A stretch of DNA of 64,000 nucleotides, taken from Candidatus Bathyarchaeota archaeon. GTDB taxonomy: Archaea; Thermoproteota; Bathyarchaeia; Bathyarchaeales; Bathycorpusculaceae. Location of the stretch: contig CAWGYA010000008.1 of the NCBI GenBank assembly GCA_963826715.1, forward strand, positions 704,001-768,000, read 5' to 3'. How positions within the stretch are numbered: the first letter of the stretch is position 1; every line of letters starts with the position of its first letter. Of the stretch, positions 11,207-47,234 are shown in pieces. A program made the position numbers and the translations under genes. The notes beneath the pieces were generated by a model, which ran no database searches, was not told where the DNA came from, and saw only the letters and a program-made list of their open reading frames with translations.

Positions 11207-11210
11207 CAGA

Positions 11211-15193: not shown

Positions 15194-16225
15194 CTATTTT
15201 ATCTGATTTTGAATTTTTTGTTTCAGCAAATAATACTTGAGAGGATGGTAAATTCGTCGGCAGATTTCATCACGGTTTTTGCACACACCATGAGTTTGCA
15301 GAACAGAGCATTGTGGTGGCGTGTAATGTGTCCCGGACCCACGTTCACCAGCAATATGTTCGATTTGGTAGCGGGTTAAACGTTCGTTATAGTCAGAGAA
15401 AGTTTTAAACATATCATTGACAGCTTCCGGAGACATCCCGATGTTAACTAGAAACGATGTTAATGTGAAGCGCCCGATATGGCTGAGGTGGTGTGCATCT
15501 GCTGCGTCGGTGTATAACGCGTTTATGCAGGGTGGAAACGCTGATTGAGTAATCATTTTAGGCATCTCCTCCACTTCTTGTCCCATGATTTCCCCAGCCA
15601 ACTTTGAGAGGTGATTGACAATGAGGTTTATATCTTCGGGGAGGTTTTTGAGTTCGCCCCCGTCTAGGCGTTTTTCCACTCGATTCTTAATTTCTTCCTG
15701 AAGCAGTCGAGCGGCATTGTCCTTGCTTAAGTAAACCATTCCGTGGTCGATTATTTGGTTTGTTAGCTTCCAAGTGGCACCATGCATATGAGCTGAATTC
15801 TTTAGGTAAAAAGTGAAGCCCAAGCGGAAATCCATATAGGGGCTGCCGTCGCTAATGTCCCAACTGAAATCCTTCGCTATCGCAGCAATTTTGAGCTTCG
15901 GCTTTTTTTCTTGACGCATCTGAGCATATGCCGTTTTCGCAACAGCTAATGCATAGCGTTTCTTTATCCAGGTGTTCTTGGTGGCCATAACTAGAATTAA
16001 AGATGCTGCGTAAGAGGAAATCTCAGTTCGCATGTCTCTAGTCAAATCGCCTGTGTTGGTTTCTATTATGGCTTTTTCCACGCGGTTTTTTGCACGGTCA
16101 AGCACACATCGGTCTTCAACGATGCTCTGTATGGTGAGCTCTAGCTCTTGGATTTTACTTGAGGCATTTTTTAAGAATGGGTATTTGGCGTAATCCTCAA
16201 TCGATAATACTGGCGCCAAATCCAT
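15194..16225 (-). CDS. priL: DNA primase large subunit
   Basis: KYPF, FPPCI, HIGRF, RYQIEHIAG, YTPPQC..C..C..HPL Fe-S domain. Confidence 0.95.
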   Translation of the reverse strand: MDLAPVLSIEDYAKYPFLKNASSKIQELELTIQSIVEDRCVLDRAKNRVEKAIIETNTGDLTRDMRTEISSYAASLILVMATKNTWIKKRYALAVAKTAYAQMRQEKKPKLKIAAIAKDFSWDISDGSPYMDFRLGFTFYLKNSAHMHGATWKLTNQIIDHGMVYLSKDNAARLLQEEIKNRVEKRLDGGELKNLPEDINLIVNHLSKLAGEIMGQEVEEMPKMITQSAFPPCINALYTDAADAHHLSHIGRFTLTSFLVNIGMSPEAVNDMFKTFSDYNERLTRYQIEHIAGERGSGTHYTPPQCSVLQTHGVCKNRDEICRRIYHPLKYYLLKQKIQNQIK

Positions 16226-16237
16226 TTGGCGTCAGCA

Positions 16238-16993
16238 CTACTCTGTTTCGATTCTAGGTGCCAAGAAGAAAGTTAATTTGCCCTCTTTGGTTTGCTGAAA
16301 ATCAATCCTCACCGGCATGTCCGAGGAAAACTCTAGTGTTGCAATATCACTGGTTGCTGAGGCGGCTTTGATGATTTCTGAAAGGTAGCTGAGGCTGAAG
16401 GTTGCTTTAGCGTTTTCCTTTACTTCCAAGTCAAGGAGGGCATCGCTTCCTTTGGGTATGGTAATGGTTGCTCCCATTAGGTCGCCAGAAGCGGAAAGGG
16501 TCAATTTTTCAGGGTCGGCTTCAATGCGAACGTGATCACTAACAAGCTGGGCGTCTTCGATTGCTTGACTTAGTCCATGGGTAGTGGTTTTAGCTTTAAC
16601 GTTGAAACTAATTTTCGGAGTTGGTACCTCTTCCTCGGATGCTTCGAGTGTGGGCATTGTAAAGTTACGGCTGTATTTCCCTGTTATTTTTACGAGTAGT
16701 CGCCCTGTTTTTTCGTCGAGACTTAGTTCGACGGATTCGTCTTTTCCGGCACGCTTAAGAAGTTTGAGGAGTTCGCTGATATTGAGGCACATTTTTGAGG
16801 GTTCAGGGGCTTCATATTCTTGAAAGATGCTTTTGGGCCACTCAAAATCAATCATTGCGACACGAGATGGATCCATTGCGCGGAGCTTTAAGCCGTCAGG
16901 TTCAATTTTAAAGGTTGCCTCATCAACAAGAATTGAGATGGCGGTTGCCATGTCTCTTAGGAGCTTCGCGTCGGAAACTTTAAGCTTAAACAT
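16238..16993 (-). CDS. pcn: PCNA sliding clamp
   Basis: RAMDPSRVAMID, FSLSYL, DMPVRIDF, FFLAPRIE. Confidence 0.97.
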   Translation of the reverse strand: MFKLKVSDAKLLRDMATAISILVDEATFKIEPDGLKLRAMDPSRVAMIDFEWPKSIFQEYEAPEPSKMCLNISELLKLLKRAGKDESVELSLDEKTGRLLVKITGKYSRNFTMPTLEASEEEVPTPKISFNVKAKTTTHGLSQAIEDAQLVSDHVRIEADPEKLTLSASGDLMGATITIPKGSDALLDLEVKENAKATFSLSYLSEIIKAASATSDIATLEFSSDMPVRIDFQQTKEGKLTFFLAPRIETE

Positions 16994-17494
16994 GAATTTC
17001 TAACCTCTTTTCCTCGCCTAATGCTTACAGTACAGGATTATATTAGCTTATCATAACGCTCTTTATTTATAAATTTAGCCTGGCAAAAAGCTGAAAGCCT
17101 TGTTTGTAAGCTTCAACCCAGGTTTCATTTTTTATTTGTGGAATCGTGGTTGCCGCAACGCGCGGTAGCCAAGGTCGCTAATCTTTCTATCTTTTCTAAT
17201 CAATCAAAACCCTTAGGCGGGACCTTTATGCCAAATCTTTTTCGTTGCTGATTTAGATCTTGGTGGCGTAGTGGACCGAGTTTCCATTGCAGAATTTTAT
17301 TACCTTTCCATAGTGAATATTTGGAAGTATTGTTTTGCTAACTACCGCTTTTATTATTATAGGACTTCCGGTTTTAAGATGTAAATAACGGGGGCCTTTC
17401 TAATATTTAAGTAACGTTTAGCTCCAACACTTTTTTTGGCTATAAAAGTGAAAAAGTATAAGAACATGTGTGTTCCCTTATTGGGAAGCTGGTA

Positions 17495-32465: not shown

Positions 32466-33609
32466 CTACTTGAAGGAGAATTTGATTAAATATGGCGTTA
32501 TAAACGCAGTAATCATTGTAGCGACGCCGATTATAGGTAATACAAAATCGCTTATCGCGCCTATGTCCTGTCCAGTTTTGGCAACAATGAAAGCGAACTC
32601 GCCTATCTGCGCCATACCAAGCCCAACCCTCAGCGAAGTCTTTTTGTCGTAGCCGAATACCCGAGTTCCAAAGCCACAGCTAGCCAATTTGGTCAGTAGG
32701 ACAGCCAAAGTTATGAGAACAGCCGGTATCCAGTAGGTGGATATCTGGGTGATATCCATCAGGGCCCCATGGAAACGAAAAAGATGGCTCCGAAAACGAT
32801 TTTGAAAGGATCTATTTGACGGTTAATTTCTTCTCTGCGGCGTGATCGGGCGACGACAACTCCAATTATGAAGGCGCCGATGGCTGCGGAGAAGCCGATT
32901 TGTGTTGCCATTATGGCGAAAGCAAAACATACTCCTAGCATCAAAATGTAGAGTAACTCCTGCTTTTCCACTTGGGCGAAGCGGTCAATTAGCTTAGGTA
33001 TCAAAAAACCGCCGACAACCAGGGTGCCGCCTATGAAAACAACTAGTTTAGTTACAAGCCACACGGTGGAAGTTATGGAAAAGGCTTGGGCGATAGCGAG
33101 GTTCTGGAGCATAGCAAGCAAAATCACCACAAACACATCCTCAACTACCAGTATTCCAAGCATTATGGTGGAGGATATCTCTTTGAGTCTCCCTGTGTCT
33201 CCCAGAACCTTGGCTATTATGGTTGTGCTGCTGCTTGCAAGGGCCGCCCCCAAAAAGAGGGTATTATAGAATCCCCAATTCAAAAAAGAGCCTAATGCCC
33301 AGCTTATAATAAGCATCAAGGCAATTTCGATTGCTGAAACTCCTATGACAACACTCCCATTGATTTGAGTTTGCGAATGGGGAATTCAAGACCAATGGTG
33401 AAAAGGAGCAGCACAACGCCGATTTCTGCGAAAACATTTATGAAATCGACGTTTCTGACAAGATTGAGCATATAGGGACCGATAAGGACACTTGCGATTA
33501 AATAGCCTATTATCAGAGGCTGTCGTAGCTTATGGAATATGAAGGCCACTATTGACGCAATTACCATCAAGACAGCAAGGTCACTTATAACTTGAATCTC
33601 AAAGCTCAT
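32466..33609 (-). pseudogene. CPA2 (KefB/NapA-like) cation:proton antiporter split by two 1-nt frameshifts
   Basis: Fragments 33343-33609, 32759-33319 and 32466-32759 carry QPLIIGYL, LLFTIGLEF, SSTTII, GILVVED, IGAFIIG, FFVSMG, QIGEFAF; joins at ATG GGA (n)GT GTT and ATG GGG (G)CC CTG ATG. Confidence 0.8.
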
Positions 33610-34024: not shown

Positions 34025-35149
34025 ATGGAAAAAAATGATGCCGCCCGACTTGAATATAATGATGAAATGAAAGCCCATGGGGCTCTTTCTCTCTTAGATT
34101 GTGCAACCCCACGTGTACCTTCCATAACGCCGGAGCTTTTTTTTGAAAGCAAAATTGCCCGCGATCGTAGCAAGCCCCTAGATGAGCGTCTGGAGTGCTT
34201 TGAGATTATTTTTGACTCGGAAGTAGGAGATACTAGTCTCACTCGTGCACGTAACATAGAGCGGGAAGTTGGGCTCCGCCAGATTTACCTCAAATTCGAA
34301 GGAGGCAATCCTACCGGAACCCAAAAAGATCGTATCGCCTTCACCCAAGCCCTTGACGCTCTTCGTCGAGGCTACAGCGAAATTACAGTTGCTTCTTGTG
34401 GTAACTACGGTTCAGCCATCGCACTTGCGGCTTATCTATCTGGTTTGCACTGTCTGATCTACATTCCAGAGGGTTATCATGTTAACCGGGTCAAGGAAAT
34501 TAAAGAGTTGGGCGCCGAGTTGATTAAGGTCCCAGGCGATTACGAGGAAGCCGTGACGGTTTCTCGCCAGAAAGCCGATGAAAACGGTTATTATGACGCT
34601 AACTCAGGTGGATCCAATACCAACCTACAGTTTAAAACGTACGGCGAGATAGCCTACGAAATATATGATGAACTCCGAGACGCACCTGCAGCTGTGGCAG
34701 TACCCGCCTCTAATGGCTCCACTCTAGCCGGTATCTATCGCGGCTTTGTCAGCCTTTACAATCGAGGGAAAACCTCGCGCATACCCCGCATCATCGCTGG
34801 TTCATCTTACGGCATGAACCCAATCATAAACGCCTTCGTCAAAAATATGACTAATTGCTGTGACTTGAATCCAGATAAAATACGCAATACCTCCATTAAT
34901 GAGCCACTGATAAATTGGCGCTCCATTGATGGCGACTATGCTTTAGCTGCAATAAGGCAAAGTCATGGGTGGGCAGCTTACGCCACTGATAAAAGTATGC
35001 TGGATTATTCCCGTTTAATTCGAGATAAAGAAGGCTTAAATGTGCTTCCCGCATCCACTGCAGGACTAATTGCCCTACTTGATAGGCATAAAAAGGAAGC
35101 GTACCCCAGTGACCGTTACGTCGTCATTTTGACAGGACGAAAAGCATGA
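34025..35149 (+). CDS. threonine-synthase-like PLP-dependent enzyme (fold type II), paralogue 1
   Basis: LKFEGGNPTGTQKDR (PLP Lys), ASCGNYG, PASNGST, VVILTGR. Confidence 0.8.
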   Translation: MEKNDAARLEYNDEMKAHGALSLLDCATPRVPSITPELFFESKIARDRSKPLDERLECFEIIFDSEVGDTSLTRARNIEREVGLRQIYLKFEGGNPTGTQKDRIAFTQALDALRRGYSEITVASCGNYGSAIALAAYLSGLHCLIYIPEGYHVNRVKEIKELGAELIKVPGDYEEAVTVSRQKADENGYYDANSGGSNTNLQFKTYGEIAYEIYDELRDAPAAVAVPASNGSTLAGIYRGFVSLYNRGKTSRIPRIIAGSSYGMNPIINAFVKNMTNCCDLNPDKIRNTSINEPLINWRSIDGDYALAAIRQSHGWAAYATDKSMLDYSRLIRDKEGLNVLPASTAGLIALLDRHKKEAYPSDRYVVILTGRKA

Positions 35150-36210
35150 GCAATTTACAAGAAAAAGAAAAAGCAGTCGTGTACTGTGACAGAGAATACC
35201 TTAACGCAAACGGCAAAACAGCCCATGGCTTAGTCCGCTATACCACACGCTACCAAATAGTTGGCGTCGTTGATTCCACTGTGTCTTCGGTTGGTGATGC
35301 AGGGGAAATTCTAGACGGCAAACCCCGTGGTATCCCTATGTTTCAAAGTTTAGAGGAAGCCTGCAAAAAAACAAAACCAGAAACATTCATCGTCGGAGCA
35401 GTCTCCGAAGGCGGTATCTTGCCTGACGGTTATGATGAAGCGGTGGTTTATGCTTTAGAAAATCGGTTAAATGTGGTTTCAGGTCTGCATCAGTTTATTT
35501 CAGATAACCCATACTTCACCTCAATAGCCCAAAAAAACAACTGCAAAATTGTGGATGTCCGCAAAATGTTCCGCGACCACAAACGCTTCTATACAGGCGA
35601 AATCAGCGAGGTTGGCTCAACTCGTATAGCGGTTTTAGGTACCGACTCCGCCATTGGCAAACGCACAACTGCAGTGATGATAGTTAATGAACTGCGCAGA
35701 CGAAATCGCAAAGCCGACATGATATACACTGGACAGACAGGTTGGATGCAGGGTTGGCCGCATGGAGCCATCATTGACGCGATGATTAACGATTTTGTTT
35801 CAGGCGGAATCGAAGGCGCTATTCTTGATTCATGGCGAGATGCGCAACCTGAATTTATGCTAATAGAAGGACAAGGCAGTTTGCTGCACCCGTTTTTTCC
35901 AGGCGGTTTTGAAATCATGGCGGCAGGACAAGTCCACGGCTTCACCATGCAAGACGCACCCGGACGCCCCAGCCTCGATGGATTTCCAGATTATCCGATG
36001 CCTGAAACGCGACGTGTTGTCCAATTAGCTAAGCTTTTGTCAGGAAAACCCCTCATCGGCATAAGCCTCAACCATGAACATATGACACAAGAAGCAGTTA
36101 AAATTGCCAAATCTGCAATGAACAAAAAGTATCATGTGCCCGTGGAAGACCCCGTGTTTGATGGCGTAGCAAAACTTACCGATGCAGTTGAGAAACTCCG
36201 AGATGGGTGA
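35146..36210 (+). CDS. DUF1611 family protein (DgcN-like, D-Glu N-acetyltransferase family)
   Basis: GKTAHGLVRY, VVSGLH, VLGTDSAIGKRTT, TGQTG, DFVSGGIE, IEGQGSL. Confidence 0.82.
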   Translation: MSNLQEKEKAVVYCDREYLNANGKTAHGLVRYTTRYQIVGVVDSTVSSVGDAGEILDGKPRGIPMFQSLEEACKKTKPETFIVGAVSEGGILPDGYDEAVVYALENRLNVVSGLHQFISDNPYFTSIAQKNNCKIVDVRKMFRDHKRFYTGEISEVGSTRIAVLGTDSAIGKRTTAVMIVNELRRRNRKADMIYTGQTGWMQGWPHGAIIDAMINDFVSGGIEGAILDSWRDAQPEFMLIEGQGSLLHPFFPGGFEIMAAGQVHGFTMQDAPGRPSLDGFPDYPMPETRRVVQLAKLLSGKPLIGISLNHEHMTQEAVKIAKSAMNKKYHVPVEDPVFDGVAKLTDAVEKLRDG

Positions 36211-37654
36211 TAAAACGAATCTTTTATGCTTCACTAACATTGCAATCTCCGAGCCCCAGATTAACGGCAACTCCGTTAGCTCTCAAGTGGTCTGCGAAGA
36301 TTTGAGTGGTGACCAATCCAGTTTTAATCTAAAAGCAACGTACCCCGCCGTTCTGTCTGTGGATGATTTGCCTTTTCTGCGATTAGCCTCAACTATGCCA
36401 CTGCTCAACTATGGGTTATTCACAGATGAAATCCGCCTAAACTTTCCTGTAAGCCAATCGGATTACTCTTTGCTAAAAGACCTCTTAGATATTTTCAGCC
36501 GCGATATTTTCATCAACAAGTTGGCGCGGAAAAAAAACCCCTACATCCTACCCCAGTATACTCTAACCGAACAGGATGTAACTGAAGAGAACGCTAAGCC
36601 ACGGGCAAAAATAACCCCAAAAAAACTCACCGCAGACTTACCGCTATTAGTTGGGGGTGACTCAAACTCTTGCGGAGTGCTCTCCAGTGGTGGCAAAGAA
36701 AGTCTCCTGACATATGCCCTGCTGAAGGAAATCGGGGCCAAAGTCTACCCTCTCTACATCAACGAAAGTGGCGGACACTGGCGCACGGCGCTTGCAGCCT
36801 ACCGACACCACGCCAAAACTGAACCTAACACAGGGCGTGTCTGGCTTAACGTGGACCGCTTCTACACCTTTATGCTTGACCATTTACGTATAATTCGCTC
36901 TGACCACCGAAAAGTGTGGCTTGACACTTACCCCCTCAGACTCTGCATATTTCCAGTTTACGTCTTCTATCTCATGCCCGTTTTTGCCGCCAAAAAAATT
37001 GGTAACCTGCTCATTGGGAGCGAATTCGACGACCCTCGCCCCTCTACCATCTATTGTGGAATAAAACACTACTACGGCGTCTATGACCAAACTCAAGACT
37101 ACGATTTGCGCATGGAGCAATGGTTTCAAAAAAGAATGCCAACAATGAGGCAGTGGAGTGTGGTTCGCCCAGTTTCAGGTTTAATTGTAGAGCGTATCTT
37201 AACTCGGCGTTACCCCAAACTTGCCAGTTGTCAACGTAGCTGTCACAGCTGCCGTCTTCAAAGCGGAGACATCCTGCCATGTGGCGAATGTAGCAAATGC
37301 TTGGCCATCCAACTGTTTCTGAAAGCCAACGGCGTTGACCCCGCCCTCATTAGCTACACCAAAAAAGACGCCGCGCTTTTTCCCGTGCGATTTGCCAAGT
37401 GTGGGTTGCGACTTGATCAAGACGAAAAAGAACATGCTGCATATTTGGCAGGCGAAAATGGTATAGCAATAACTGGCAGAGAACATCCTCATGTCGAGTC
37501 AATTCATCTCTACAAGGAAACTGGCGATTTGCAGCTTGTTCCCGCACAGTTTCGTCAGAGTCTGCTTAACATAATCAAGCAATACACTAGCGGCTACACC
37601 ATGTTATCGGGTTACGATTGGGTTTCAGCTACTGAACTCCATCTATCGCCTTAA
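36203..37654 (+). CDS. PP-loop (adenine nucleotide alpha-hydrolase-like) protein with C-terminal Cys cluster, MurL/QueC-like; function unknown
   Basis: SSGGKESLL PP-loop; WSVVRPVS; SCHSC..PCGECSKC; overlaps the DUF1611 stop. Confidence 0.6.
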   Translation: MGDKTNLLCFTNIAISEPQINGNSVSSQVVCEDLSGDQSSFNLKATYPAVLSVDDLPFLRLASTMPLLNYGLFTDEIRLNFPVSQSDYSLLKDLLDIFSRDIFINKLARKKNPYILPQYTLTEQDVTEENAKPRAKITPKKLTADLPLLVGGDSNSCGVLSSGGKESLLTYALLKEIGAKVYPLYINESGGHWRTALAAYRHHAKTEPNTGRVWLNVDRFYTFMLDHLRIIRSDHRKVWLDTYPLRLCIFPVYVFYLMPVFAAKKIGNLLIGSEFDDPRPSTIYCGIKHYYGVYDQTQDYDLRMEQWFQKRMPTMRQWSVVRPVSGLIVERILTRRYPKLASCQRSCHSCRLQSGDILPCGECSKCLAIQLFLKANGVDPALISYTKKDAALFPVRFAKCGLRLDQDEKEHAAYLAGENGIAITGREHPHVESIHLYKETGDLQLVPAQFRQSLLNIIKQYTSGYTMLSGYDWVSATELHLSP

Positions 37655-38123
37655 TCATGCGGACAGCGTTACAGGTGCCATGATGCTCAAATCTGTAGAA
37701 GACCCCCAGCCGCTTTTTCTGTTTGTACCCTGCTTTCTGGTAAAGCTCAATAGCAGCTTCATTACCCTCCGAGACCTCCAACTGCGAAAACTTTAGCCCG
37801 TGACTCTTTATGTCTTCTTCTGCTGCCAACAGAAGCTTGAGCCCTATTCCCTGACTCTGAAAAGCTGGGTCAACATCCAAGGTTTCCAAATATCCTATCT
37901 GTGTGCCTCTTCGATAAAGAACAATAATGAATCCTATTACGCCATCCGAATTGCTTTCTACGATGCTTGTGCTGTTTGCTTTCAAGATTAGGTATTCAAG
38001 TTGTCGTTTAGAATACGCAGTGGCTCCATGGAAGCATTTTTTCTCAATCTCTGCTATGCCATCAACATCGTTGGAATTCGCTTTGCGGGTGAATGAGGGT
38101 TTATTCTTTTCCACAGGTTTCAA
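37629..38123 (-). CDS. GNAT acetyltransferase (RimI-like)
   Basis: LDVDPAFQSQGIG, LEVSEGNEAAIELYQKAGY. Confidence 0.88.
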   Translation of the reverse strand: MKPVEKNKPSFTRKANSNDVDGIAEIEKKCFHGATAYSKRQLEYLILKANSTSIVESNSDGVIGFIIVLYRRGTQIGYLETLDVDPAFQSQGIGLKLLLAAEEDIKSHGLKFSQLEVSEGNEAAIELYQKAGYKQKKRLGVFYRFEHHGTCNAVRMIKAIDGVQ

Positions 38124-38249
38124 CTATGAATACAACATTCAAGTATTCAAAAGGAAAAACATTTCGACTTGCCCAGTAAGTGTTGATTAGACGAATCTTT
38201 TATTTATGCGTTAATGATTGGATGGTTGGGTTATCCAGAAGGGAAATTG

Positions 38250-39197
38250 GTGAAGAAAGCAGTTAAAGATTATGAATTTACGGAGAAAATGACTGTAAAT
38301 GAGCTTGTCGAGCAGATGGGTGAGGCATGGGGGTTCACCGCGGGCAAACTATCTGTGGGTGTTGGCATCCTTGAAGACATGATTAAGAGTAAGGGATGCG
38401 TCAAGTTTCTCTCGTTTACTGCCGACATAATCGCCACTGGCACCCGAGGTGTCATCCGCGAACTCGTTAAACGCAAACTCGTGGACATAATCATAACCAC
38501 CTGTGGCACCCTAGACCATGACCTTGCAAGATGCCACAGAGACTACTACCACGGAAGCTTCGTCATGAACGACACTAAACTGCATCAGCAAGGCCTCAAC
38601 CGTCTCGGCAACGTGCTGGTGCCCAACGATAGTTACGGTGTCATCATCGAAAAGAAAATTCAAGCCATGCTTACCGACCTCTACACTGAAGGTAAACGCG
38701 AACTATCTACAACAGAGCTTTCTCGCGAAATCGGGTTACGATGTTGCAATGAAACTTCCATCCTCTATTGGGCAGCCAAAAACAATATCCCCCTCCATGT
38801 ACCCGGAATAACAGACGGCGCGGTCGGGTACCAACTATGGATATTTAGCCAAGACCATAAGGACTTTCGCGTAAACCTGCTCAAAGACGAGGGGCAACTA
38901 AGCGATCTAATGTTTGACACAAAAATAACAGGTGCTCTCATAGTCGGTGGTGGCATCAGCAAACACCATACGATTTGGTGGAACCAATTCAAAGACGGTT
39001 TAGACTACGTCGTCTACATTAGCACAGCGGACGAATGGGATGGCAGCCTCAGCGGCGCTCGACCACGCGAAGCGGTATCGTGGGGTAAAATCAGCGAAAA
39101 AGCCAAGTGCATCATGATAGAAGGCGATGCTACAATGGTGCTCCCAGTGATGACTAGCGCGTTAATAGATAGACTTAGCTCTCACCCAAAATACTAA
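38250..39197 (+). CDS. dys: deoxyhypusine synthase (canonical aIF5A-modifying type)
   Basis: GFTAG, TTCGTLDHD, NRLGN, PGITDG, GGGISKHH, DGSLSGARPREAVSWGK, GDAT. Confidence 0.92.
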   Translation: MKKAVKDYEFTEKMTVNELVEQMGEAWGFTAGKLSVGVGILEDMIKSKGCVKFLSFTADIIATGTRGVIRELVKRKLVDIIITTCGTLDHDLARCHRDYYHGSFVMNDTKLHQQGLNRLGNVLVPNDSYGVIIEKKIQAMLTDLYTEGKRELSTTELSREIGLRCCNETSILYWAAKNNIPLHVPGITDGAVGYQLWIFSQDHKDFRVNLLKDEGQLSDLMFDTKITGALIVGGGISKHHTIWWNQFKDGLDYVVYISTADEWDGSLSGARPREAVSWGKISEKAKCIMIEGDATMVLPVMTSALIDRLSSHPKY

Positions 39198-39230
39198 TAA
39201 TCACGCTTTAATACGATAAAACAAGGAATA

Positions 39231-40376
39231 TTGATGGAAGAAAGAGACAAGGGCATTCAAAGTCACAGTCTCAATAAAACCCCCATTGAACAATCAATCA
39301 TTAACGGTTCCTTTTCTCTAATGGATGGGGCCAGCGCTCAGATACCTGTAATTACACCTGAAATATCTCAACTGAGCAAGATAGCATCTGATAAAAGTCG
39401 ATCGATAGAGGAGCGCTTAGAGAGTTTTGAGATAATTCTTGACTCAGAAGTTGGTGATACCAATCTCACTAGGGGGAAGAATATTGAAAGAGAAATCGGG
39501 CTTAGGCAGATATATTTGAAGTTTGAGGGTGGAAACCCCACTGGCACGCAAAAAGATCGAATCGCATTTGCCCAAGCTTTGGATGCACTTCGAAGAGGCT
39601 TTAACGAAATCACAGTAGCCTCATGCGGCAACTACGGCGCCGCTGTATCACTTGCAGCTTCCCTTTCTGGACTCCGCTGCTTGGTCTACATTCCCCAGAC
39701 CTATCACACGCGTAGAATTAAAGAGATGACTGATTTCGGTGCTGAAATTATTAGGGTCCCGGGAAGTTATGAAGACGCCGTAAATGCTTCTCGGCAAGAT
39801 GCAGAAAAAAAAGGTTACTACGATGCCAACCCAGGAGGTGCTAACACTAACATTCAATTGAAAGCGTACGGCGAAATAGCCTACGAAATTTACGATGAAC
39901 TTCGTGACGCTCCGGCTGTCGTAGCTGTTCCAGTTTCGAATGGATCTACTTTAGCTGGTATCCATAGGGGCTTCGTAAGTCTCTACAATCGCGGAAAGAC
40001 CTCGCGTATTCCACGCTTTGTTGCTGGATCTTCCTTGGGAATGAACCCAATAGTGCAAGCTTTTGTTAAAAACACGTCTTATTGTGCCGACTTAAAGCCT
40101 GAAAAAATCAGAAATACATCCGTCAATGAACCGTTGGTTAATTGGCGATCAATAGACGGTGAAATTGCTCTATCGACTATAAGGCAGACGCGTGGATGGG
40201 CCGCTTTCGCAACAGATAAGAGCATGCAAGACTATGCACGTTTGATTAGAGAGCAAGAAGGTTTAAGTGTGCTACCCGCTTCAACTGCTGGACTTATAGC
40301 ACTTCTGGATAGACATAAAAAGGAACCTTTCCTAGGCGATCGCTATGTCGTTATATTAACGGGAAGAAAAGCGTGA
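39231..40376 (+). CDS. threonine-synthase-like PLP-dependent enzyme, paralogue 2
   Basis: Same motifs as 34025-35149 with long identical blocks (GLRQIYLKFEGGNPTGTQKDRIAF; YGEIAYEIYDELRDAPA; DRYVVILTGRKA). Confidence 0.8.
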   Translation: MMEERDKGIQSHSLNKTPIEQSIINGSFSLMDGASAQIPVITPEISQLSKIASDKSRSIEERLESFEIILDSEVGDTNLTRGKNIEREIGLRQIYLKFEGGNPTGTQKDRIAFAQALDALRRGFNEITVASCGNYGAAVSLAASLSGLRCLVYIPQTYHTRRIKEMTDFGAEIIRVPGSYEDAVNASRQDAEKKGYYDANPGGANTNIQLKAYGEIAYEIYDELRDAPAVVAVPVSNGSTLAGIHRGFVSLYNRGKTSRIPRFVAGSSLGMNPIVQAFVKNTSYCADLKPEKIRNTSVNEPLVNWRSIDGEIALSTIRQTRGWAAFATDKSMQDYARLIREQEGLSVLPASTAGLIALLDRHKKEPFLGDRYVVILTGRKA

Positions 40377-40423
40377 TACCGACTTTTGGGTTGACAGTTG
40401 ATATGAATTGGAGTTATAATTAA

Positions 40424-41491
40424 ATGAAGATAATTCGGGCAGATGCAATACCAGTTGAGTTGGAGTTAAAGGAACCTTTTGCAATTGCTAACGAAACAAT
40501 TGAGGTTGCCGATAATATATTTATACGTTTGGAGACTGAACACGGCCTAATAGGCTGGGGCTGTTCAACCCCGGATATGGTGACCTCTGAAACAAAAGAA
40601 ACAGTGCTAAAGAGTTTTGAAATTGCAAAAAGATATGTTATCGGTTGTGACCCAACAAGAATTAATCTTGTGAATTACGCGTTGGAAAATGATCTTCATG
40701 GCAACCCGTCTCTGAAAGCGAGTGTAAATATGGCTTTGTACGATCTTATCGGAAAAATGGCGGGTATGCCTTTATTCAGGTTATTAGGTGCTTATAGAGA
40801 AAAAATAGAAACATCTGTAACAATAGGATTGAATCCCACAGATTTGATGGTAAAGAAAGCTAAACAGATAGTCTCTGATGGCTTTAAAATAATTAAAATA
40901 AAATGTGGAATTAACCTTGAGAAAGACATAGAGACTATCCTTGCCATTCGAGAAGCGGTTGGTTCAACAATAAAGTTGAGACTTGATGCCAATGAGGGCT
41001 ATTCAGTAGAAGAAGCGCTCAGAATGATAAAAGCTATAGAGGAAAAAGGTGCCGATATAGAGCTGTTGGAACAGCCAACTAAAGCAAGTCACCTTTATTC
41101 CCTGAAGGAAGTTACACACCAAAGCCCCGTTCCAATAATGGCTGATGAAACCGCATTGACTTTAAGAGACAGTGTGAAGCTCTTGAAGCATGAAATTGCA
41201 GACATGATTAACATAAAGTTGATGAAAATTGGTGGGCTAACAAATGCCATTAAAGCTAATGTGCTTGCTGATCTAGCAGGTGTTCCTATTATGGTGGGAT
41301 GCATGAACGAATCAATGGCTGCTATGTCGGCGGGCGTCCACTTTGCTTGCGCTTTTAGAAATGTGCAGTATGCAGATTTAGATTCAGCATTAGACTTTGT
41401 TAACGACGTCGCTAAAGGCGGTGCAAGATATGAAAAAGGCTTCGTGATTCCTTCAGAAAAACCGGGATTAGGCGTCGATGTCCAACTTTGA
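40424..41491 (+). CDS. dipeptide epimerase (L-Ala-D/L-Glu epimerase / DgcA-like, enolase superfamily)
   Basis: KIK, LDANEG, LEQP, MADE, NIKLMKIGG, GCMNES and the DLD motif of dipeptide epimerases. Confidence 0.9.
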   Translation: MKIIRADAIPVELELKEPFAIANETIEVADNIFIRLETEHGLIGWGCSTPDMVTSETKETVLKSFEIAKRYVIGCDPTRINLVNYALENDLHGNPSLKASVNMALYDLIGKMAGMPLFRLLGAYREKIETSVTIGLNPTDLMVKKAKQIVSDGFKIIKIKCGINLEKDIETILAIREAVGSTIKLRLDANEGYSVEEALRMIKAIEEKGADIELLEQPTKASHLYSLKEVTHQSPVPIMADETALTLRDSVKLLKHEIADMINIKLMKIGGLTNAIKANVLADLAGVPIMVGCMNESMAAMSAGVHFACAFRNVQYADLDSALDFVNDVAKGGARYEKGFVIPSEKPGLGVDVQL

Positions 41492-42840
41492 GCAACAACT
41501 ATTTCGCTAAAATATTAGAAGAAGTCCCAAATTATAGTGGATTCTTGAAGGTAAATGAGATTGAGGCTCTTGAGGACAGTTTAAAACAGTATTCATCAGT
41601 TAAGCAGATAACAATTGGTAAGACAGCTGAAAACAAACCGCTCAAAATGTTTACTATGGGTAAGGGAGAGAAAACCGGACTGATAATTGGGGTACCTCAC
41701 AGTGATGAACCTTTAGGTAGCCTAGTAACGACTTATTTTATTGATTGGATGGCAAAGCATTCAGAAGCAAATTTTTTTGGCTGGAGATGGTTAATAATTC
41801 CTATGCTTGAGCAACGTGGGATGCGAATGAATGAAGGATGGTTCAGCAATATCTCCTCGCTTGTTGACACTGCAAAATCCTATTTCCGAGAACCAACCGA
41901 AAACCAGTATGAATGGACATTTCCTTTTGAATATAAAAACTATAAGTGGGTGCAGTCAAGACCTGAATCAAGTGCGATAAAAGAAGTCATTAAAAAGGAA
42001 AAACCAGACCTCTTATACACTCTGCATCATTGCGGTTATTATGATACATACTTTTACCTTAGCAGGTCGCTTCCAAAAGCTTATCCGAGATTGAGGAAGT
42101 TATCCTGTGATTTGGGGTTGGCTCTTTCCACTTCTAGTCCGGATGTTCCTTTCGGTAAAACCTTGGAGCCTGGTTTCTATCAAATGTATGGTTTAAAAGA
42201 TTACATTGATTACTATTCTAAGCACGAACCGGACAACCTCTTAACTATGAGGCGAGGTGCAAACAGTGACGAATGGTACCAGAATATAGTTGGCGGTTTT
42301 AGTTTCAATTGTGAAGTTCCGCTTTTTTGTTCATCAATGAAAACAGACTCAAAATCTTCTGATCGCAAACTAAAACAGTTACTTCAAAATAGCAGAAAAA
42401 AAACAGCAAACACCATTGAATATTGCATAAACTTGTTAAATACGTTGGAACCTTTTTTTAGCCTTTCTGATCCTGTACTTTTGGGTTCAGTGCTTAAAAA
42501 TGTGGCGAACGCCAAATTAGAATTAGAAAATACAGCCTTAGAGATAGACGAGGAAAAAGATCCCAACGCTACTAACTACGAGGTTTTCGAAAACGACTTA
42601 ATGGTTGATATTGCTGATTTGCTCCTGATAGGTCAGGTCTGGCGTGTAACAGAAAATATTCACCGCAATATCAATGATGGCAAAAATGACTATATGCTTG
42701 AGAGAATCGACCAAAAAATAAAGGGCCTTGCCAAAAAGATAGATAAACGAGGCGAATTCAAGCCAATTCCTATTCAAAAATTAGTTAAAATGCAGTTAGG
42801 TAGTCTTCTGATTATTGCTGATGTTCTATCAAGTATTTAA
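41488..42840 (+). CDS. M14-family zinc carboxypeptidase/amidohydrolase
   Basis: IG.T.E..P, HSDE (HxxE), TLHH, CEVP; overlaps the epimerase stop. Confidence 0.78.
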   Translation: MSNNYFAKILEEVPNYSGFLKVNEIEALEDSLKQYSSVKQITIGKTAENKPLKMFTMGKGEKTGLIIGVPHSDEPLGSLVTTYFIDWMAKHSEANFFGWRWLIIPMLEQRGMRMNEGWFSNISSLVDTAKSYFREPTENQYEWTFPFEYKNYKWVQSRPESSAIKEVIKKEKPDLLYTLHHCGYYDTYFYLSRSLPKAYPRLRKLSCDLGLALSTSSPDVPFGKTLEPGFYQMYGLKDYIDYYSKHEPDNLLTMRRGANSDEWYQNIVGGFSFNCEVPLFCSSMKTDSKSSDRKLKQLLQNSRKKTANTIEYCINLLNTLEPFFSLSDPVLLGSVLKNVANAKLELENTALEIDEEKDPNATNYEVFENDLMVDIADLLLIGQVWRVTENIHRNINDGKNDYMLERIDQKIKGLAKKIDKRGEFKPIPIQKLVKMQLGSLLIIADVLSSI

Positions 42841-43057
42841 TTCGATTGATGACTGTTCCAAAAACTCATTTGTTTGGTACATGTTCGATTAAGGAGTATA
42901 TATTTAGCGTGTATTTTTCAAAGAATTTAAAAAGCTTAGTTTTTTGATAAACTGAACTTTTGTAGCATTGTTTTTCTTAAAAGTATGGTAAAACAAGCCG
43001 TATTTCGATGTTAAATAATTTGATGTGTTAAAAAGTATAAAAAGAAAAAATTGAGGT

Positions 43058-44128
43058 TTATTGTACGTCTTTGAATATCCAGTTCATATCTGGACCTTTC
43101 CGTTTGTCTGGAACGCGGTCAGCCAATGCATGGCAGATGAGTGGCAATGCAATGGTTGCGTCGCAGTAGCACACTGCGCGGGTTCCGGTTTGGCTGTTGA
43201 TTTTGCCCCAGCTAATAGCTTCTTCCAACGTGCAGCCAGATAAGCCTCCCCATTGCGGAGAGTCAGTTGTGATTTGGATGGCGTATTTGTGCGGGTAATA
43301 GTACTCTTGTAGGCTTTTGCGTAGTCCGCCTTTTCTGCCCTGTACCCCTTTGTCTTCAGTCATTGGGCTGACGGATATGGCGATGAGTTGTGTGAGGTCT
43401 TTGGGGACGCCTCCACCGAGGTAGACCACCCCAACTTCTTTGGTTTTGGTTCCGATGCTCACGAACTGGTCAAATTCTTTGACGCTGTCTATATGGACCA
43501 TGTGTCCCTGATTTTTTGCCAAAAGGAAAGTTTCGCCGTAGGCGCTGTCCACCATGGCTGGGCTGAAAATTGGAACTTCATTAGCTGCGGCGACTGCAGA
43601 TATAGCTGGGATGTTTTTTTTGCCCAAGTACTTGCCTAGAAGGTAAAGAAACTCGGCTGAGGTGTAGTTATAGTCAGTTTTGCATGTCATGACAAAGTCA
43701 GTGACGAGTTCTTCCATTTTGCGGTAGTCGGTTTCTTTCCCGAATACGTCGTAGTAGCGGTTAACATCGGCGTTGAGTAGTTCCTCGTCGTTGACCATGT
43801 GGCTGCCTTGATAGTAACCAAGTCCCATAGCGTCCACAATATCCTCAGACACGTTGGCGCCTGTAGAGACGAGGACGTCGATAAAGCGGTTTTCCATAAG
43901 CCAATTGATTATGGTCCACTGCCCCGCCGTGGACATGGAGCCTGCGAACCCCATTGCAATGACTGTATCTTTCTCTTTAATCATGTTCTCCCAGACATCA
44001 ACGGCTTCTCCTAGTTTGCGTCCTTGATAGGCTGTTTTGCCCATTTCTTTGAGAAGTTGTGAAATATTTTTTTGTTTGGTAACCTTGATTGGCTCAAGTT
44101 TCTTTTGGAAATATAAATCTTCACTCAT
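43058..44128 (-). CDS. second deoxyhypusine-synthase-like protein (possibly polyamine/homospermidine synthesis)
   Basis: YQGRKLG, AGSMSTAG, STGAN, RYYD, DSAYG, GGGVPKD, GGLSGCTLEEAISWGK, CDATIALP. Confidence 0.85.
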   Translation of the reverse strand: MSEDLYFQKKLEPIKVTKQKNISQLLKEMGKTAYQGRKLGEAVDVWENMIKEKDTVIAMGFAGSMSTAGQWTIINWLMENRFIDVLVSTGANVSEDIVDAMGLGYYQGSHMVNDEELLNADVNRYYDVFGKETDYRKMEELVTDFVMTCKTDYNYTSAEFLYLLGKYLGKKNIPAISAVAAANEVPIFSPAMVDSAYGETFLLAKNQGHMVHIDSVKEFDQFVSIGTKTKEVGVVYLGGGVPKDLTQLIAISVSPMTEDKGVQGRKGGLRKSLQEYYYPHKYAIQITTDSPQWGGLSGCTLEEAISWGKINSQTGTRAVCYCDATIALPLICHALADRVPDKRKGPDMNWIFKDVQ

Positions 44129-44344
44129 TGTTAATGTGCACCTGTCGTTTTATGTTATTAGGCTGGTATTTGAAATTTGTCATTGTCAAAAAACATCCAC
44201 TAATTACTGCTTTCTGTTAGTGCCTCTATAGGCTCTATGATGTGTTAGTCGATTGGATGTTTTCAACATCGTTTGCATGTTAAAACGCAAGTTTTTGTCT
44301 AAATAAAGAAGGGTATAAGTTGTAGATAAAAACAGAAATGTATT

Positions 44345-46303
44345 CTACATTTTTTCTGGCGCGACTACACCTATGAGATTTAGCGCGTTTTTCATAATGG
44401 TTTGGATGGCTCGGGTGAGCGCTAGACGTGCTTCGCATAACTGCTGTGAATCCGCTTTGAGTACGGGGTAGGCGTTGTAGAAGGTGTTGAATTTATCAGC
44501 TAATGCGTTGGCGTAGTCAGCTATCAGGTTGGGTTTCAAGTATTCGGTGGCTTCGATGAAAATGTCAGGGAACCCAGCTAGGTTCAGAATTAGTTCCTTT
44601 TCTAGCCGTTCCGATAGCAAACTGAACTCGGGGTCGTCGGGTTCTTTTGTCGCTTTTCGCAGTATGCTACAGGCGCGTGCATGAGTGTACTGTACGTATG
44701 GGGCGCTGTTGGTTTCAAAGTTAAGTACCCGTTCCCAAGTGAATACCACAGGCTTACCTGAATCAACATCCACCAATGCATAACGCACAGCGCCTAATCC
44801 GACGAAATCTGCAATTTTGCTTTTCTCTGCCTCAGAGAGCGTAGGTGAGCGCTTGGAAACTTCCTCGTATGCACGTCTCACTGCTTCATCTAGTACTTCG
44901 TCAAAGGTTATATAGTGTCCACGGCGACTGCTCATTTTGTAACCTGGTAACGTGACGAGGTTGTAGGCAAAATGCACTAGATTCTCTGCTTCTTTGCTAT
45001 AGCCCATGGCGTAGAGCGCCAATTTCAGCTGCAACTGCGCCAATGACTGCTCCATACCGATGACGTTGATTACTTTATTTGAATGCTTGAATTTCCAGAT
45101 GGTGTAGGCGATGTCGCGGGTGGTGTAGAGTGTTGTCCCATCGGCGCGTACCAGCGTAAGCGGCGGGACCTCATTGTTATCGCTTAAGCCCAATTTTTCT
45201 TTTAGGTCAAGAACTTGAGTCACCTGGTTAGCGTCAAATTGGAGGACCCCTTTTTCATTGAAAATAAATGGAGTTGTTTTTAAACGCGTCATAACCTCGT
45301 TAACCTGAGGTGTCCAGACAAAATCACTTTCCCAATCCCACGAGTCATATGTTACGCCAATACGCTTCATGGTCTGCCGGAAACCTTCTAAACAAAGATC
45401 GCTAACTTCACGTATAAGCTTCTTTGCTGCTGGGGCTCCGTCTTCGTAGGCGCGGTTGAGACGGTTGATTTCATCTTCTGGGTTTTGATCTTCGCTTATT
45501 TTTGTTAGTAGTTCTTCGAAGAGAATTGGATACTTTTCTTTGAGTTCCGCAGCGATTGCAACCCATTCATCAAGTTCCTTGTTTGCCTTGGCTAAGTCAT
45601 CGGAGTTTTGGGCTGTAGCTGTTTGTTCTCTGATTCTTTTGAGGCGGTTAATTTCAACGATGCATGAAGTGACAGTGTAGATTTTGCCTACAAACAAGTC
45701 AGCTTTTTCGGTGGGTTGAGGTCTGCCTAATTTGGCATAACCATATGCTACTACGCTAGATTGACGTCCCACGTCGTCAATGTAGTAGTGCCGAGAAACA
45801 TCATGCCCCCTATTCTGTAGGATGCGTGCCAGGGCGTCTCCGAGCATTGGGTTTCGGGCTTGACCAATGTGAATAGGATGCAATGGGTTAACGCTAGTGT
45901 GCTCAACAATGATTTTTTGTGGCTCAGTAGTCTTCACAAAGCCGTATTCATCTTTTAGATGCTTGATGGATTTTAGGGTAAGTGCGCCGAATTTGGCGAA
46001 GTTAAGATGGAAATTTATGTATCCTGCACCTGCGGCTTCGACTTTTTCTATGAGGTCAAAATCTGATTGATCAATATTGGCGACCATATCCTGTGCAAGA
46101 GCAAGAGGTTTCTTGGTGAGTTTTTTTGCCAGTTCAAAACATAGGGAAGTCGCAAGTTGCCCATAGTCAATATTGGGTGTTTTTTTGAGGGTGATTTTAA
46201 GCTGTTTGATTTCAGGTAGGGTCTTTTGTATGGCGTTTGCTAGTAGGTTTTGGCATTCTTGGCGAAAGAGTTCAAAGGGGTTTTGGGCAATCATTATTTC
46301 CAA
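44345..46303 (-). CDS. argS: arginyl-tRNA synthetase
   Basis: VEHTSVNP..HIGQARN (HIGH), RADGTTLYTTRD, KMSSRRG, YVQYTHARACSIL, PEKM. Confidence 0.97.
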   Translation of the reverse strand: MEIMIAQNPFELFRQECQNLLANAIQKTLPEIKQLKITLKKTPNIDYGQLATSLCFELAKKLTKKPLALAQDMVANIDQSDFDLIEKVEAAGAGYINFHLNFAKFGALTLKSIKHLKDEYGFVKTTEPQKIIVEHTSVNPLHPIHIGQARNPMLGDALARILQNRGHDVSRHYYIDDVGRQSSVVAYGYAKLGRPQPTEKADLFVGKIYTVTSCIVEINRLKRIREQTATAQNSDDLAKANKELDEWVAIAAELKEKYPILFEELLTKISEDQNPEDEINRLNRAYEDGAPAAKKLIREVSDLCLEGFRQTMKRIGVTYDSWDWESDFVWTPQVNEVMTRLKTTPFIFNEKGVLQFDANQVTQVLDLKEKLGLSDNNEVPPLTLVRADGTTLYTTRDIAYTIWKFKHSNKVINVIGMEQSLAQLQLKLALYAMGYSKEAENLVHFAYNLVTLPGYKMSSRRGHYITFDEVLDEAVRRAYEEVSKRSPTLSEAEKSKIADFVGLGAVRYALVDVDSGKPVVFTWERVLNFETNSAPYVQYTHARACSILRKATKEPDDPEFSLLSERLEKELILNLAGFPDIFIEATEYLKPNLIADYANALADKFNTFYNAYPVLKADSQQLCEARLALTRAIQTIMKNALNLIGVVAPEKM

Positions 46304-46385
46304 CCTTATTTGGGCAGTTAGACACTGTTAAACGTTATATTTTAAATGGGATGCTACATTTATGTGTCTGTTGGATGCAATCTCG

Positions 46386-47234
46386 ATGAAGACAAAGATA
46401 GTCTATTCTGAGAAGTGTTTAGGCTATGGAACGTGGCATATTGAGGGTCCGCAACGAGTAAAAATTGCTCATGATGTCTTAAAAGAAAAAGGCTACGAAT
46501 TCGTGGACCCCATAGCTGCAACTGAAGACGAAATCCTATCAGTTCATGATATGGAATATATCTGGAACCTGAAAAAGGGGCTTGTGGAAGACTCTGACAC
46601 ACCAGCTTATGATAATATCTTTGAAGTTGCCAGGTTATCAGTCGGCGGCGCTTTAATGGCGAGTAGGATCAACGGTTTCTCTATAACACGTCCACCAGGA
46701 CACCATGTAGGCAAATATGGTAGTGCCTTGGGTTCTTACACTCGGGGATTCTGCTACCTAAATAACATAGCTATAGCCGTCAAGCAACTGGGGAAAAAGA
46801 CTCTGATTTTAGATATTGATGGACACCATGGCAATGGTACGCAGGAAGTTTTTCTCGGCAAATCAAATGTAACGTATGTTTCGTTGCATCAATCCCCCAA
46901 TTACCCTGGTACAGGAAGCTTTTCTGAGAAAAACTGTATTAACTATGCCCTACCGCCGGATGTAGGGGGCAAAGTTTACTTGGAAACCTTATCTAAGGCT
47001 CTGGGGTTGGTTGATTTACGTAACTTTGAGGTTTTGGCAGTTTCTACGGGATTTGACACTCACAGTGGTGACTTAGCGACTCTGGGGTTGGTTGGACAAG
47101 ATTTCTTTGATATCGGCAAAAAAATTGCTTTGCTTGGGTTACCTGCTTTTTTTGTTTTGGAAGGCGGCTACAATGGACAAAATGTTGGGTTAGATATTGA
47201 TTTGTTGTTGAGGGGCTTTGAAGAAAACTTATAA
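46386..47234 (+). CDS. histone deacetylase family protein
   Basis: RPPGHH, GFCYLNN, DIDGHHGNGTQ, SLHQ..YPGTG, GFDTH..D, LEGGY. Confidence 0.92.
   Translation: MKTKIVYSEKCLGYGTWHIEGPQRVKIAHDVLKEKGYEFVDPIAATEDEILSVHDMEYIWNLKKGLVEDSDTPAYDNIFEVARLSVGGALMASRINGFSITRPPGHHVGKYGSALGSYTRGFCYLNNIAIAVKQLGKKTLILDIDGHHGNGTQEVFLGKSNVTYVSLHQSPNYPGTGSFSEKNCINYALPPDVGGKVYLETLSKALGLVDLRNFEVLAVSTGFDTHSGDLATLGLVGQDFFDIGKKIALLGLPAFFVLEGGYNGQNVGLDIDLLLRGFEENL

Follow-up and report, generated by a model that had tools for sequence, protein, structure and literature searches.

We describe a gene cassette in a 64,000-nucleotide stretch of archaeal DNA (contig CAWGYA010000008.1, positions 704,001 to 768,000; hereafter the window), which the names of its homologues place in Bathyarchaeia. 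The obligate core of the cassette consists of two genes, one for a DgcN-like DUF1611 protein and one for a protein of 490 residues that we call X490; a pyridoxal-phosphate (PLP) enzyme and, in archaea, a GNAT acetyltransferase usually accompany this core, and an epimerase together with a hydrolase forms an add-on. Genes that appear in the window as two "mini-operons" belong to one conserved system, whose arrangement recurs in all 80 related loci examined, archaeal and bacterial, far beyond what chance would give. We propose, tentatively and at somewhat less than an even chance, that the cassette uses ATP to acylate an amino acid, epimerise it and remove the acyl group again.

The cassette recurs in archaea and bacteria

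A sequence-only reading of the window had listed nine genes and supposed that their families work together. Our open reading frame (ORF) calls place all nine genes at the coordinates given there, searches with Pfam and NCBIfam models confirm their families (Table 1), and the neighbourhoods of related genes show the families co-occurring widely as one system. For the latter, a peptide pattern was scanned against one genome per species; at least 598 stretches matched, at least 593 of them were confirmed, and the best 80, from Bathyarchaeia, Thermoplasmatota and Thermococci plus one contig labelled bacterial, were analysed. Neighbours were identified by tblastn with the window proteins (E <= 1e-8, at least 50% coverage), and a locus was counted only where its contig left room for the neighbour. 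Since the 80 loci are those nearest to the window, the fractions below cannot be read as those of the family at large. DUF1611 directly neighbours X490 in 73 of 74 loci, the PLP enzyme lies upstream of X490 in 52 of 63, and the GNAT gene directly follows X490 in 54 of 73 archaeal loci. The epimerase and the M14 peptidase come as a pair, which is present in 25 of 64 loci, and neither was found without its partner in any of the 80. Further out in the family, loci retain just the DUF1611-X490 pair, with an EamA transporter (three annotated loci) or GNAT (Thermococcus) after it.

The same association holds at the level of genomes. Across 41 related genomes X490 and DUF1611 share an identical distribution, both being present in five, which amounts to 5 of the 25 genomes of the genus. 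M14 is found in three of these five and in none of the other 36 (Fisher's exact p = 0.0009, for genomes that are kin and not independent), and within the genus the epimerase-M14 pair occurs only where the DUF1611/X490 core is present. All cassette members are under purifying selection, with ratios of nonsynonymous to synonymous substitution rates (dN/dS) of 0.03-0.14. The cassette flanks differ from locus to locus, and the cassette is self-contained and horizontally mobile.

In bacteria the order is PLP-DUF1611-X490::creatininase-epimerase, the double colon marking a fusion. Fourteen metagenome loci were analysed around such creatininase fusions, and we regard them as bacterial because their flanks hold genes for sigma-54 activators, OEP/AcrB and GroEL/ES. 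PLP and DUF1611 lie upstream in 11 of the 14 and the epimerase downstream in nine; among the five loci lacking an epimerase the contig ends within 0.8 kb in four, and one (L107) has room. An X490-type match was found in 19 of 151 genomes of the class to which the bacterial genome holding locus L063 belongs, and seven of eight loci from that class show the same order, six of these with creatininase. A non-homologous hydrolase of the creatininase family occupies the M14 slot in bacteria. Locus L063 itself (on a contig labelled Eubacteriales, 7822-17075) carries a six-gene cassette beside a sigma-70 gene; its PLP enzyme, nearest to Thermoplasmatota in the PLP tree, is 65% and its epimerase 67% identical to that of the window, which suggests transfer between archaea and bacteria.

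Furthermore, the cassette proteins are fused to one another in several combinations. X490 homologues are joined in some cases to a creatininase-family amidohydrolase, to DUF1611 or to a methyltransferase. DUF1611::X490 fusions make up 27 clusters of 843-871 residues, both of the two that were checked (P0142 and P0293) being full fusions, and P0309 joins the epimerase to DUF1611. P0320, a predicted protein of 1762 residues in a eukaryote protein set, unites five functions in the order PALP-DUF1611-X490-creatininase-MR_MLE, and its X490 part is 35% identical to ours (E 4e-77). Because a non-homologous hydrolase takes the M14 position and because fusions join all five functions, we read the genes as serving one pathway.

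X490 is predicted to combine a QueC-type fold with distant kinship to MurL

X490 (P0001) has no Pfam family. Among 23 homologues, 11 match DUF6395 (best E 8.8e-4) and two match QueC (best E 0.2), and searches of X490 against sequences of the Protein Data Bank (PDB), by phmmer and with a profile, returned only noise such as tetratricopeptide-repeat (TPR) designs and TtuA (E 0.12). An AlphaFold2 model computed from the alignment of 23 homologues reached a predicted local distance difference test (pLDDT) score of 90.9, against 32 for the single-sequence prediction. Foldseek ranked QatC (9y02_B), Cap9 (9nto_B) and QueC first for this model. Independently of Foldseek, VIA superposed X490 residues 161-386 on Cap9 (9nto_B; Z 13.1, root-mean-square deviation 2.6, 178 residues aligned) and on QueC (3bl5_A; Z 12.9, root-mean-square deviation 3.2, 190 residues aligned), with the remaining PP-loop enzymes below Z 9.1. 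As modelled, X490 would comprise a QueC-fold PP-loop adenylating core (residues ~160-390) and N- and C-terminal domains specific to the family.

The motifs agree with the description of the third gene as encoding a PP-loop/Cys protein, which had been made from the sequence and which the fold match to QueC and Cap9 also bears out. In the PP-loop motif SSGGKES, G171 is invariant, and at least 90% of the 23 homologues share S168, S169, G170, K172 and S174. In the Cys cluster no homologue departs from C354, C367 or C370, and at least 90% have C373; the cluster falls within the region that superposes on QueC and Cap9, and we take the matching site of QueC to be one that binds zinc. The homologues align only from residue 8-13 onward, and the true start of X490 is probably Met8, at 36203.

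An exhaustive search of representative sequences with X490 gave 241 clusters. Among its distant relatives of ~450 residues, 14 of the 16 scanned match the MurL model NF041275 (E 7e-4 to 6e-12). The alignment of X490 with its homologues (A1, 23 homologues) was compared by hhalign with that of the relatives (A2, 15 sequences, 13 of which match the MurL NCBIfam model, also at E 7e-4 to 6e-12), and the two matched at 99.95%, E 1.5e-38, over 300 columns spanning X490 residues 152-466. In the Atlas, MurL_N / MurL_epimerase_C clusters are among the nearest to X490 (score 0.96). These alignments point to X490 being a distant relative of MurL, with common ancestry at the superfamily level.

The DUF1611 protein and the PLP enzymes

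The DUF1611 protein has the DUF1611_N plus DUF1611_C architecture of DgcN, that is, a Rossmann-like N-domain and a P-loop domain, and its GxDxxxGKRT motif is invariant in 22 sequences. It matches the DgcN model NF041892 with an E value of 2.1e-48 and 165 bits, below the cut-off of 480.

The two PLP enzymes of the window are 75% identical over 357 residues. Whether these genes are simply thrC was a question raised by their likeness to threonine synthase, and the answer is that they are not: PLP1 and PLP2 score 94.6 and 94.7 bits on the thrC model TIGR00260 (cut-off 167.1), whereas the true thrC of the host, elsewhere in the genome, scores 360 bits. Automatic annotation will nevertheless name them threonine synthase, because both pass the cut-off of PRK06381 (430 bits for PLP1 and 426.7 for PLP2, against 266). 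We know of no experimental evidence behind this model, and the name "threonine synthase" that NCBI models give to both genes is probably wrong. Their Schiff-base Lys is kept, and the S-T-G-N-T loop of ThrC, which we take to be its substrate loop, becomes (S/T)-C-G-N-Y: where ThrC has T85 and T88, all 61 of the 61 sequences have Cys and Tyr; we refer to these enzymes as the "(S/T)CGNYG" subfamily. The region of Thermus thermophilus ThrC that holds N154, S155 and R160, presumably its phosphate ligands, aligns with gaps, and a Lys or Arg stands two positions later in 55 of 62 PLP sequences. The cassette enzymes are nearest to synthase-type ThrC and CysK rather than to dehydratases.

The epimerase, the hydrolase and the acetyltransferase

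The solved structure closest to the epimerase is that of Bacillus subtilis YkfB (1jpm, 2.1e-73). Residues K160, D188, E216, D241, K265, D318 and D320, which make up the catalytic Lys pair (K160 and K265), the metal ligands and the DxD motif (D318 and D320), align to YkfB and are kept in at least 95% of 26 sequences; the DxD motif, which we assume binds the free N-terminal ammonium group of a dipeptide, is also kept in eight of eight bacterial epimerases. A Glu (Glu24) stands at the position of YkfB Arg24 in 26 of 26 archaeal and seven of eight bacterial sequences. YkfB Arg24 presumably binds the Glu side chain of the substrate; Glu24 would be expected to repel such a side chain, and a role in D-Glu or murein metabolism is weakened accordingly. 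Furthermore, the epimerase falls below the cut-offs of the Ala-Glu epimerase models NF041118 (245.5 against 500 bits) and NF011708 (106.9 against 343) and of the DgcA model NF042940 (159.1 against 400).

The M14 gene is translationally coupled to the epimerase gene, and its product consists of a catalytic domain of ~280 residues and a helical C-terminal domain. H71-x-x-E74, H180/H181 and E276, which correspond to the zinc ligands and the catalytic Glu, are invariant in 15 sequences. The motifs HGDE, PET-AV and NLHGG align to carboxypeptidase M, which is the best match among PDB sequences (E 0.046), and 29 of the 30 top Atlas clusters are M14. The GNAT gene is convergent with X490, and no GNAT gene was detected in the 22 bacterial loci examined.

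Arrangement of the genes in the window

PLP1 overlaps DUF1611 by 4 bp, DUF1611 overlaps X490 by 29 bp, the convergent X490 and GNAT genes overlap by 26 bp and the epimerase overlaps M14 by 4 bp; PLP2 and the epimerase are 47 bp apart.

Table 1. Genes and motifs of the cassette and of the interleaved DHS genes in the window
Feature	Position	Strand	Support
PLP1, fold-type-II PLP enzyme, ThrC-like	34025..35149	+	PALP 3.4e-55
DUF1611 protein, DgcN-like	35146..36210	+	DUF1611_C 1.7e-52, DUF1611_N 4.2e-23
X490, 490 residues	36182..37654	+	no Pfam family
X490 PP-loop motif SSGGKES, residues 168-174	36683..36703	+	23-homologue alignment
X490 Cys cluster C354...C367-x2-C370-x2-C373, QueC-type metal site	37241..37300	+	23-homologue alignment
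GNAT acetyltransferase	37629..38123	-	Acetyltransf_1 3.3e-16
DHS1, deoxyhypusine synthase	38214..39197	+	1.5e-103; PRK01221 439.7 bits (cut-off 350)
PLP2, second copy of the PLP enzyme	39231..40376	+	PALP 2.2e-53
Dipeptide epimerase, enolase superfamily	40424..41491	+	MR_MLE_C/N 8.7e-51 and 3.6e-15
M14 zinc carboxypeptidase, divergent	41488..42840	+	Peptidase_M14 2.6e-6; 27.7 bits (cut-off 21.6)
DHS2, divergent deoxyhypusine synthase paralogue	43058..44128	-	2.4e-87

The two deoxyhypusine synthase (DHS) genes had been counted with the system, and this part of the proposal does not hold. In four genomes of the same genus that lack X490 the order is FrhB-orf242-CofE-(Na/H exchanger)-DHS1-DHS2-ArgRS-HDAC, and because DHS1 and DHS2 are adjacent in all four, we assign them to the chromosomal backbone and reject them as cassette members. 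DHS2 remains syntenic with the arginyl-tRNA synthetase (ArgRS) gene and a gene resembling histone deacetylases (HDAC) whether the cassette is present or not, and DHS1 is found in just eight of the 80 related loci. A complete four-gene cassette, PLP1-DUF1611-X490-GNAT, is inserted upstream of DHS1 and PLP2-epimerase-M14 between DHS1 and DHS2, a layout common to the window and to loci L013 and L014.

The two PLP-headed mini-operons of the sequence-only reading are thus present in the window, but they represent a derived arrangement, found in three genomes; cassettes usually have one PLP gene. In a quick maximum-likelihood tree of 62 PLP sequences, with support from the Shimodaira-Hasegawa-like approximate likelihood-ratio test (SH-aLRT) only, PLP1 groups with PLP enzymes of four-gene cassettes from the same chromosomal slot, and PLP2 groups (SH-aLRT 100) with the single PLP enzyme of the six-gene cassette of L072/G022, whose order is PLP-DUF1611-X490-GNAT-epimerase-M14. 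Because of this second grouping, we take PLP2-epimerase-M14 as the remnant of a second, six-gene cassette of which the middle (DUF1611-X490-GNAT) was lost. The remnant is maintained by selection, its dN/dS values being low throughout (PLP2 0.08, epimerase 0.05, M14 0.14). Synonymous divergence (dS) from L013 is uneven across 34025-37654 of the window, at 1.7 for PLP1 and 0.50 for X490, and is also 0.50 for PLP2, which hints at recombination inside the cassette.

Several observations concern the DHS genes and their surroundings. Between DHS1 and PLP2, which share a strand, there are only 33 bp (39197-39231), and co-transcription is possible. Genes resembling DHS also adjoin the cassette at one Thermoplasmatales locus (L057, 5505-6482) and one bacterial locus (L104, 11419-12387); seen at eight of 80 loci in archaea and one of 14 in bacteria, an association of DHS with the cassette is too weak to call. 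DHS2 is just at the threshold of its model (434.5 bits, cut-off 434), and it also matches the model of 1,9-bis(guanidino)-5-aza-nonane synthase (2.3e-64), below the cut-off of the latter. It adjoins the ArgRS gene and a histone-deacetylase-family gene (window 43058-47234), and this part of the backbone may be a polyamine-related cluster. The Na+/H+ exchanger gene (32466-33609, minus strand), probably a pseudogene, is split into three ORFs of 97, 186 and 88 residues, which match profile positions 279-370, 82-272 and 2-71; its orthologue in L093 is one ORF of 399 residues.

Where the cassette is absent, the slot upstream of DHS1 (L093, 5637-10360; L094, 6176-9601) holds another set of amide-bond enzymes, comprising a CxxCxxCC protein, a GCS2 carboxylate-amine ligase and an RLAN protein with a RimK-like ATP-grasp ligase, the RLAN/RimK-like genes lying 48-66 bp upstream of DHS1. 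Within the genus the RLAN gene was found in 15 of 20 genomes without X490, against 1 of 5 with it (Fisher p 0.04, again for kin that are not independent). The CxxCxxCC family (PF03692) of this alternative Bathyarchaeia cassette also occurs after the epimerase in three of eight annotated Thermoplasmatota six-gene loci (L045, 15166-15561; L057, 14646-15074; L039, 15017-15430).

Two loci show damaged cassettes. In L012/L031 (genome G015, contig C26) a second four-gene cassette from the same bin is decaying: PLP and DUF1611 appear frameshifted, their matches falling into several pieces, and X490 has one TGA and two TAA stop codons; this copy could equally come from a second strain, the contamination of the bin being 5%. 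In L021 (Bathyarchaeia, 7818-8922) the PLP gene is split into ORFs of 182 and 129 residues, with DUF1611-X490-GNAT intact.

A proposed pathway and its alternatives

All chemistries of the cassette converge on the alpha-amino and alpha-carboxyl groups of one residue, and for this reason we ascribe a shared pathway logic to its enzymes. Starting from the gene content, fold, homology, co-occurrence and fusions that we observed, we infer an order of steps, a substrate and a direction, as well as parts for the PLP enzyme and GNAT. DUF1611 would attach an acyl or aminoacyl group to an amine. X490 would adenylate a carboxylate, converting ATP to AMP, and would either make an amide bond or, in the manner of MurL, drive the inversion of a C-terminal residue. 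The enolase-type epimerase would equilibrate the C-terminal stereocentre of a dipeptide-like intermediate, and the hydrolase, whether M14 or creatininase-family, would release the inverted amino acid. The net outcome would be an effectively irreversible, ATP-driven stereoinversion, either from D to L or from L to D. Its substrate is probably an amino acid other than Glu, perhaps a basic or polar one, which the PLP enzyme would supply or consume.

A more specific version, possible but on balance doubtful, is that DUF1611 and X490 together form an unrecognised two-component, often fused, ATP-dependent enzyme acting in stereoinversion via a transient dipeptide. Such an enzyme would N-aminoacylate an amino acid, or activate an N-acylated one, and would work with the dipeptide epimerase and the hydrolase. 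The substrate would then be basic, or non-standard and derived from the PLP enzyme, and the cassette would have been passed between archaea and bacteria by gene transfer and would have become a single five-domain protein in one lineage.

A number of points weigh against the stereoinversion pathway. X490 itself reaches only 14.4 bits (E 0.0099) on the MurL model, whose cut-off is 700, and three full-length X490 homologues scanned with this model gave no match. If X490 were a MurL-like epimerase, the six-gene and bacterial forms would contain two epimerases; if it were a ligase, the four-gene archaeal form would have no obvious epimerase or hydrolase, and indeed no M14 match was found in G003 and G013, which are 97% and 100% complete. 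The activation by ATP that X490 would provide is not obviously needed, because DgcN-type chemistry, as we understand it, uses acetyl-CoA. The scheme gives no clear role to the highly conserved PLP enzyme or to GNAT. Finally, the flanks of 19 archaeal and 10 bacterial loci contain no conserved uptake transporter or regulator, which would be unusual for a catabolic route.

The two candidate epimerases, the four-gene form without a hydrolase, the unexplained PLP enzyme and GNAT and the lack of a conserved transporter also keep a biosynthetic role credible, though we consider it rather unlikely. Here a non-standard amino acid made by the PLP enzyme would be ligated by DUF1611 and X490, the latter as an amide synthetase like QueC or Cap9, to give a dipeptide or N-acyl product; the epimerase would set a D-residue, GNAT would acetylate the product or protect the host, the peptidase would mature or recycle the product, and the product itself might serve as osmolyte, signal or antimetabolite. 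The folds closest to that of X490 agree with this, since QueC and Cap9 turn an adenylated carboxylate into an amide or a nitrile, and so do the synthase-type affinities of the PLP enzyme, the EamA-type transporter beside some distant versions, the missing uptake system and a patchiness, at 5 of 25 genomes of the genus, like that of an accessory trait. Against it, a tightly coupled or fused carboxypeptidase or creatininase-type hydrolase would undo a peptide product, most loci lack an exporter, a regulator or an immunity gene, and the sole DUF1611 member known to be characterised is catabolic. A third reading, on which the sequence-only reading had focused, is the scavenging of D-Glu or murein peptides, in which D-Glu would be N-acetylated and racemised as in the Dgc route and L-Ala-gamma-D-Glu peptides would be recycled as by YcjG/MpaA. 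It can draw on the homology of the DUF1611 protein to DgcN, on YkfB, an L-Ala-D/L-Glu epimerase, as the closest solved relative of the epimerase, on an epimerase-M14 pairing that we take to mirror ycjG-mpaA, and on the hosts, which are metagenome-assembled Bathyarchaeia and Thermoplasmatota, DNA of the window occurring in runs labelled soil metagenome. We consider it improbable: every relevant cut-off is missed (DgcN 165/480, DgcA 159/400 and the two Ala-Glu epimerase models), Glu24 replaces the Arg of YkfB almost throughout, most loci with room (39 of 64) have the core but not the epimerase-M14 pair, and neither known route has a role for X490 or the PLP enzyme.

The structural matches also raise conjugation to a protein or nucleobase, possibly in defence, with X490 attaching a small molecule to a protein terminus as in Cap9 of type IV CBASS or QatC of QatABCD. 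QatC and Cap9 are the top matches in Foldseek and VIA, and the cassette is patchy and mobile, yet none of six cassette proteins matches a PADLOC model (2023 release) at E <= 0.01, no gene of the QatA/B/D, CD-NTase or Cap10-like kind lies in the flanks examined, the fixed partners are enzymes of small-molecule amino-acid chemistry, and the epimerase keeps the DxD motif, to which we assign dipeptide ammonium binding; we regard this reading as very improbable. That the genes are unrelated and lie together by chance has a negligible probability and is already refuted by the order shared between archaea and bacteria and by fusions linking all five functions; it holds true only of the interleaved DHS genes, which are indeed unrelated backbone.

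Comparison with known systems

ATP-driven stereoinversion would have partial parallels in several pathways. The D-glutamate route of DgcN and DgcA, reportedly described by Yu et al. in 2023 in ISME J, likewise brings together a DUF1611 protein, an enolase-superfamily racemase and a hydrolase in an acylate-invert-deacylate scheme, and the cassette family has the epimerase::DUF1611 fusion P0309. DgcN and DgcA have been termed an "irreversible racemization pathway" (PMC12363236). Unlike this route, the cassette has an epimerase of dipeptide type, with DxD and Glu24, and adds an obligatory ATP-using X490, a PLP enzyme and GNAT.

The alternative peptidoglycan route of MurD2 and MurL is said to have been reported by Feng et al. 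in 2017. MurL adenylates and inverts a C-terminal residue with formation of AMP, and X490, its distant homologue via intermediate sequences, is also paired with an amide-forming or acylating enzyme. MurL needs ATP and Mg, yields AMP and acts only from L to D on a C-terminal Glu (PMC5808125, PMC8788868). Only the core of X490 (152-466) aligns to MurL, however, the N-terminal 150 residues being specific to the X490 family; the partner is DUF1611 and not a Mur ligase, and the archaeal hosts have no murein.

The N-succinylamino-acid racemase (NSAR) pathway, an irreversible D-to-L conversion of amino acids reportedly described by Sakai et al. in 2006 (Biochemistry 45:4455), is said to combine an acyltransferase, an enolase-superfamily racemase and a deacylase into a net irreversible inversion, as proposed for the cassette. 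The cassette would be driven by conversion of ATP to AMP, whereas NSAR reportedly uses succinyl-CoA, and its racemase is a dipeptide epimerase and its hydrolase M14 or creatininase-type, as against an M20 hydrolase that the NSAR pathway is said to use.

In murein-peptide recycling, YcjG-MpaA of Escherichia coli and YkfA/B/C of B. subtilis pair a dipeptide epimerase with a metallopeptidase. The cassette epimerase is likewise paired and translationally coupled with a metallopeptidase, and YkfB is its closest solved structure. Unlike those systems, it has Glu24 in place of Arg24, its M14 partner is very divergent, as the weak best PDB match shows, and in the genus the pair is found only with the DUF1611/X490 core. 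Lastly, X490 shares with QueC, Cap9, QatC and YcfA the same fold (Z 12.9-13.1), an SGGxxS PP-loop and a C-x(n)-C-x2-C-x2-C site, but differs from the QueC family (PF06508) in having no Pfam QueC match, in its extra N- and C-terminal domains and in the absence of 7-deazaguanine or defence genes near the cassette in the flanks examined.

Significance

We found no description of this enzyme set in the literature searched, a search outside which key sources on DgcN and dipeptide epimerases fell. A single peptide pattern places the cassette in at least 593 species-level genomes, and 19 of 151 genomes of one bacterial class have an X490-type match. Its key enzyme has no Pfam family. The natural fusions make the cassette directly testable in vitro. 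If the proposed stereoinversion is true, it would be a third, mechanistically distinct solution to irreversible amino-acid inversion, ATP-driven and MurL-like, and would give a function to a large branch of DUF1611 and to a new QueC/MurL-type family. The cassette bears on how its hosts among metagenome-assembled Bathyarchaeia and Thermoplasmatota handle D-amino acids or produce D-residue metabolites.

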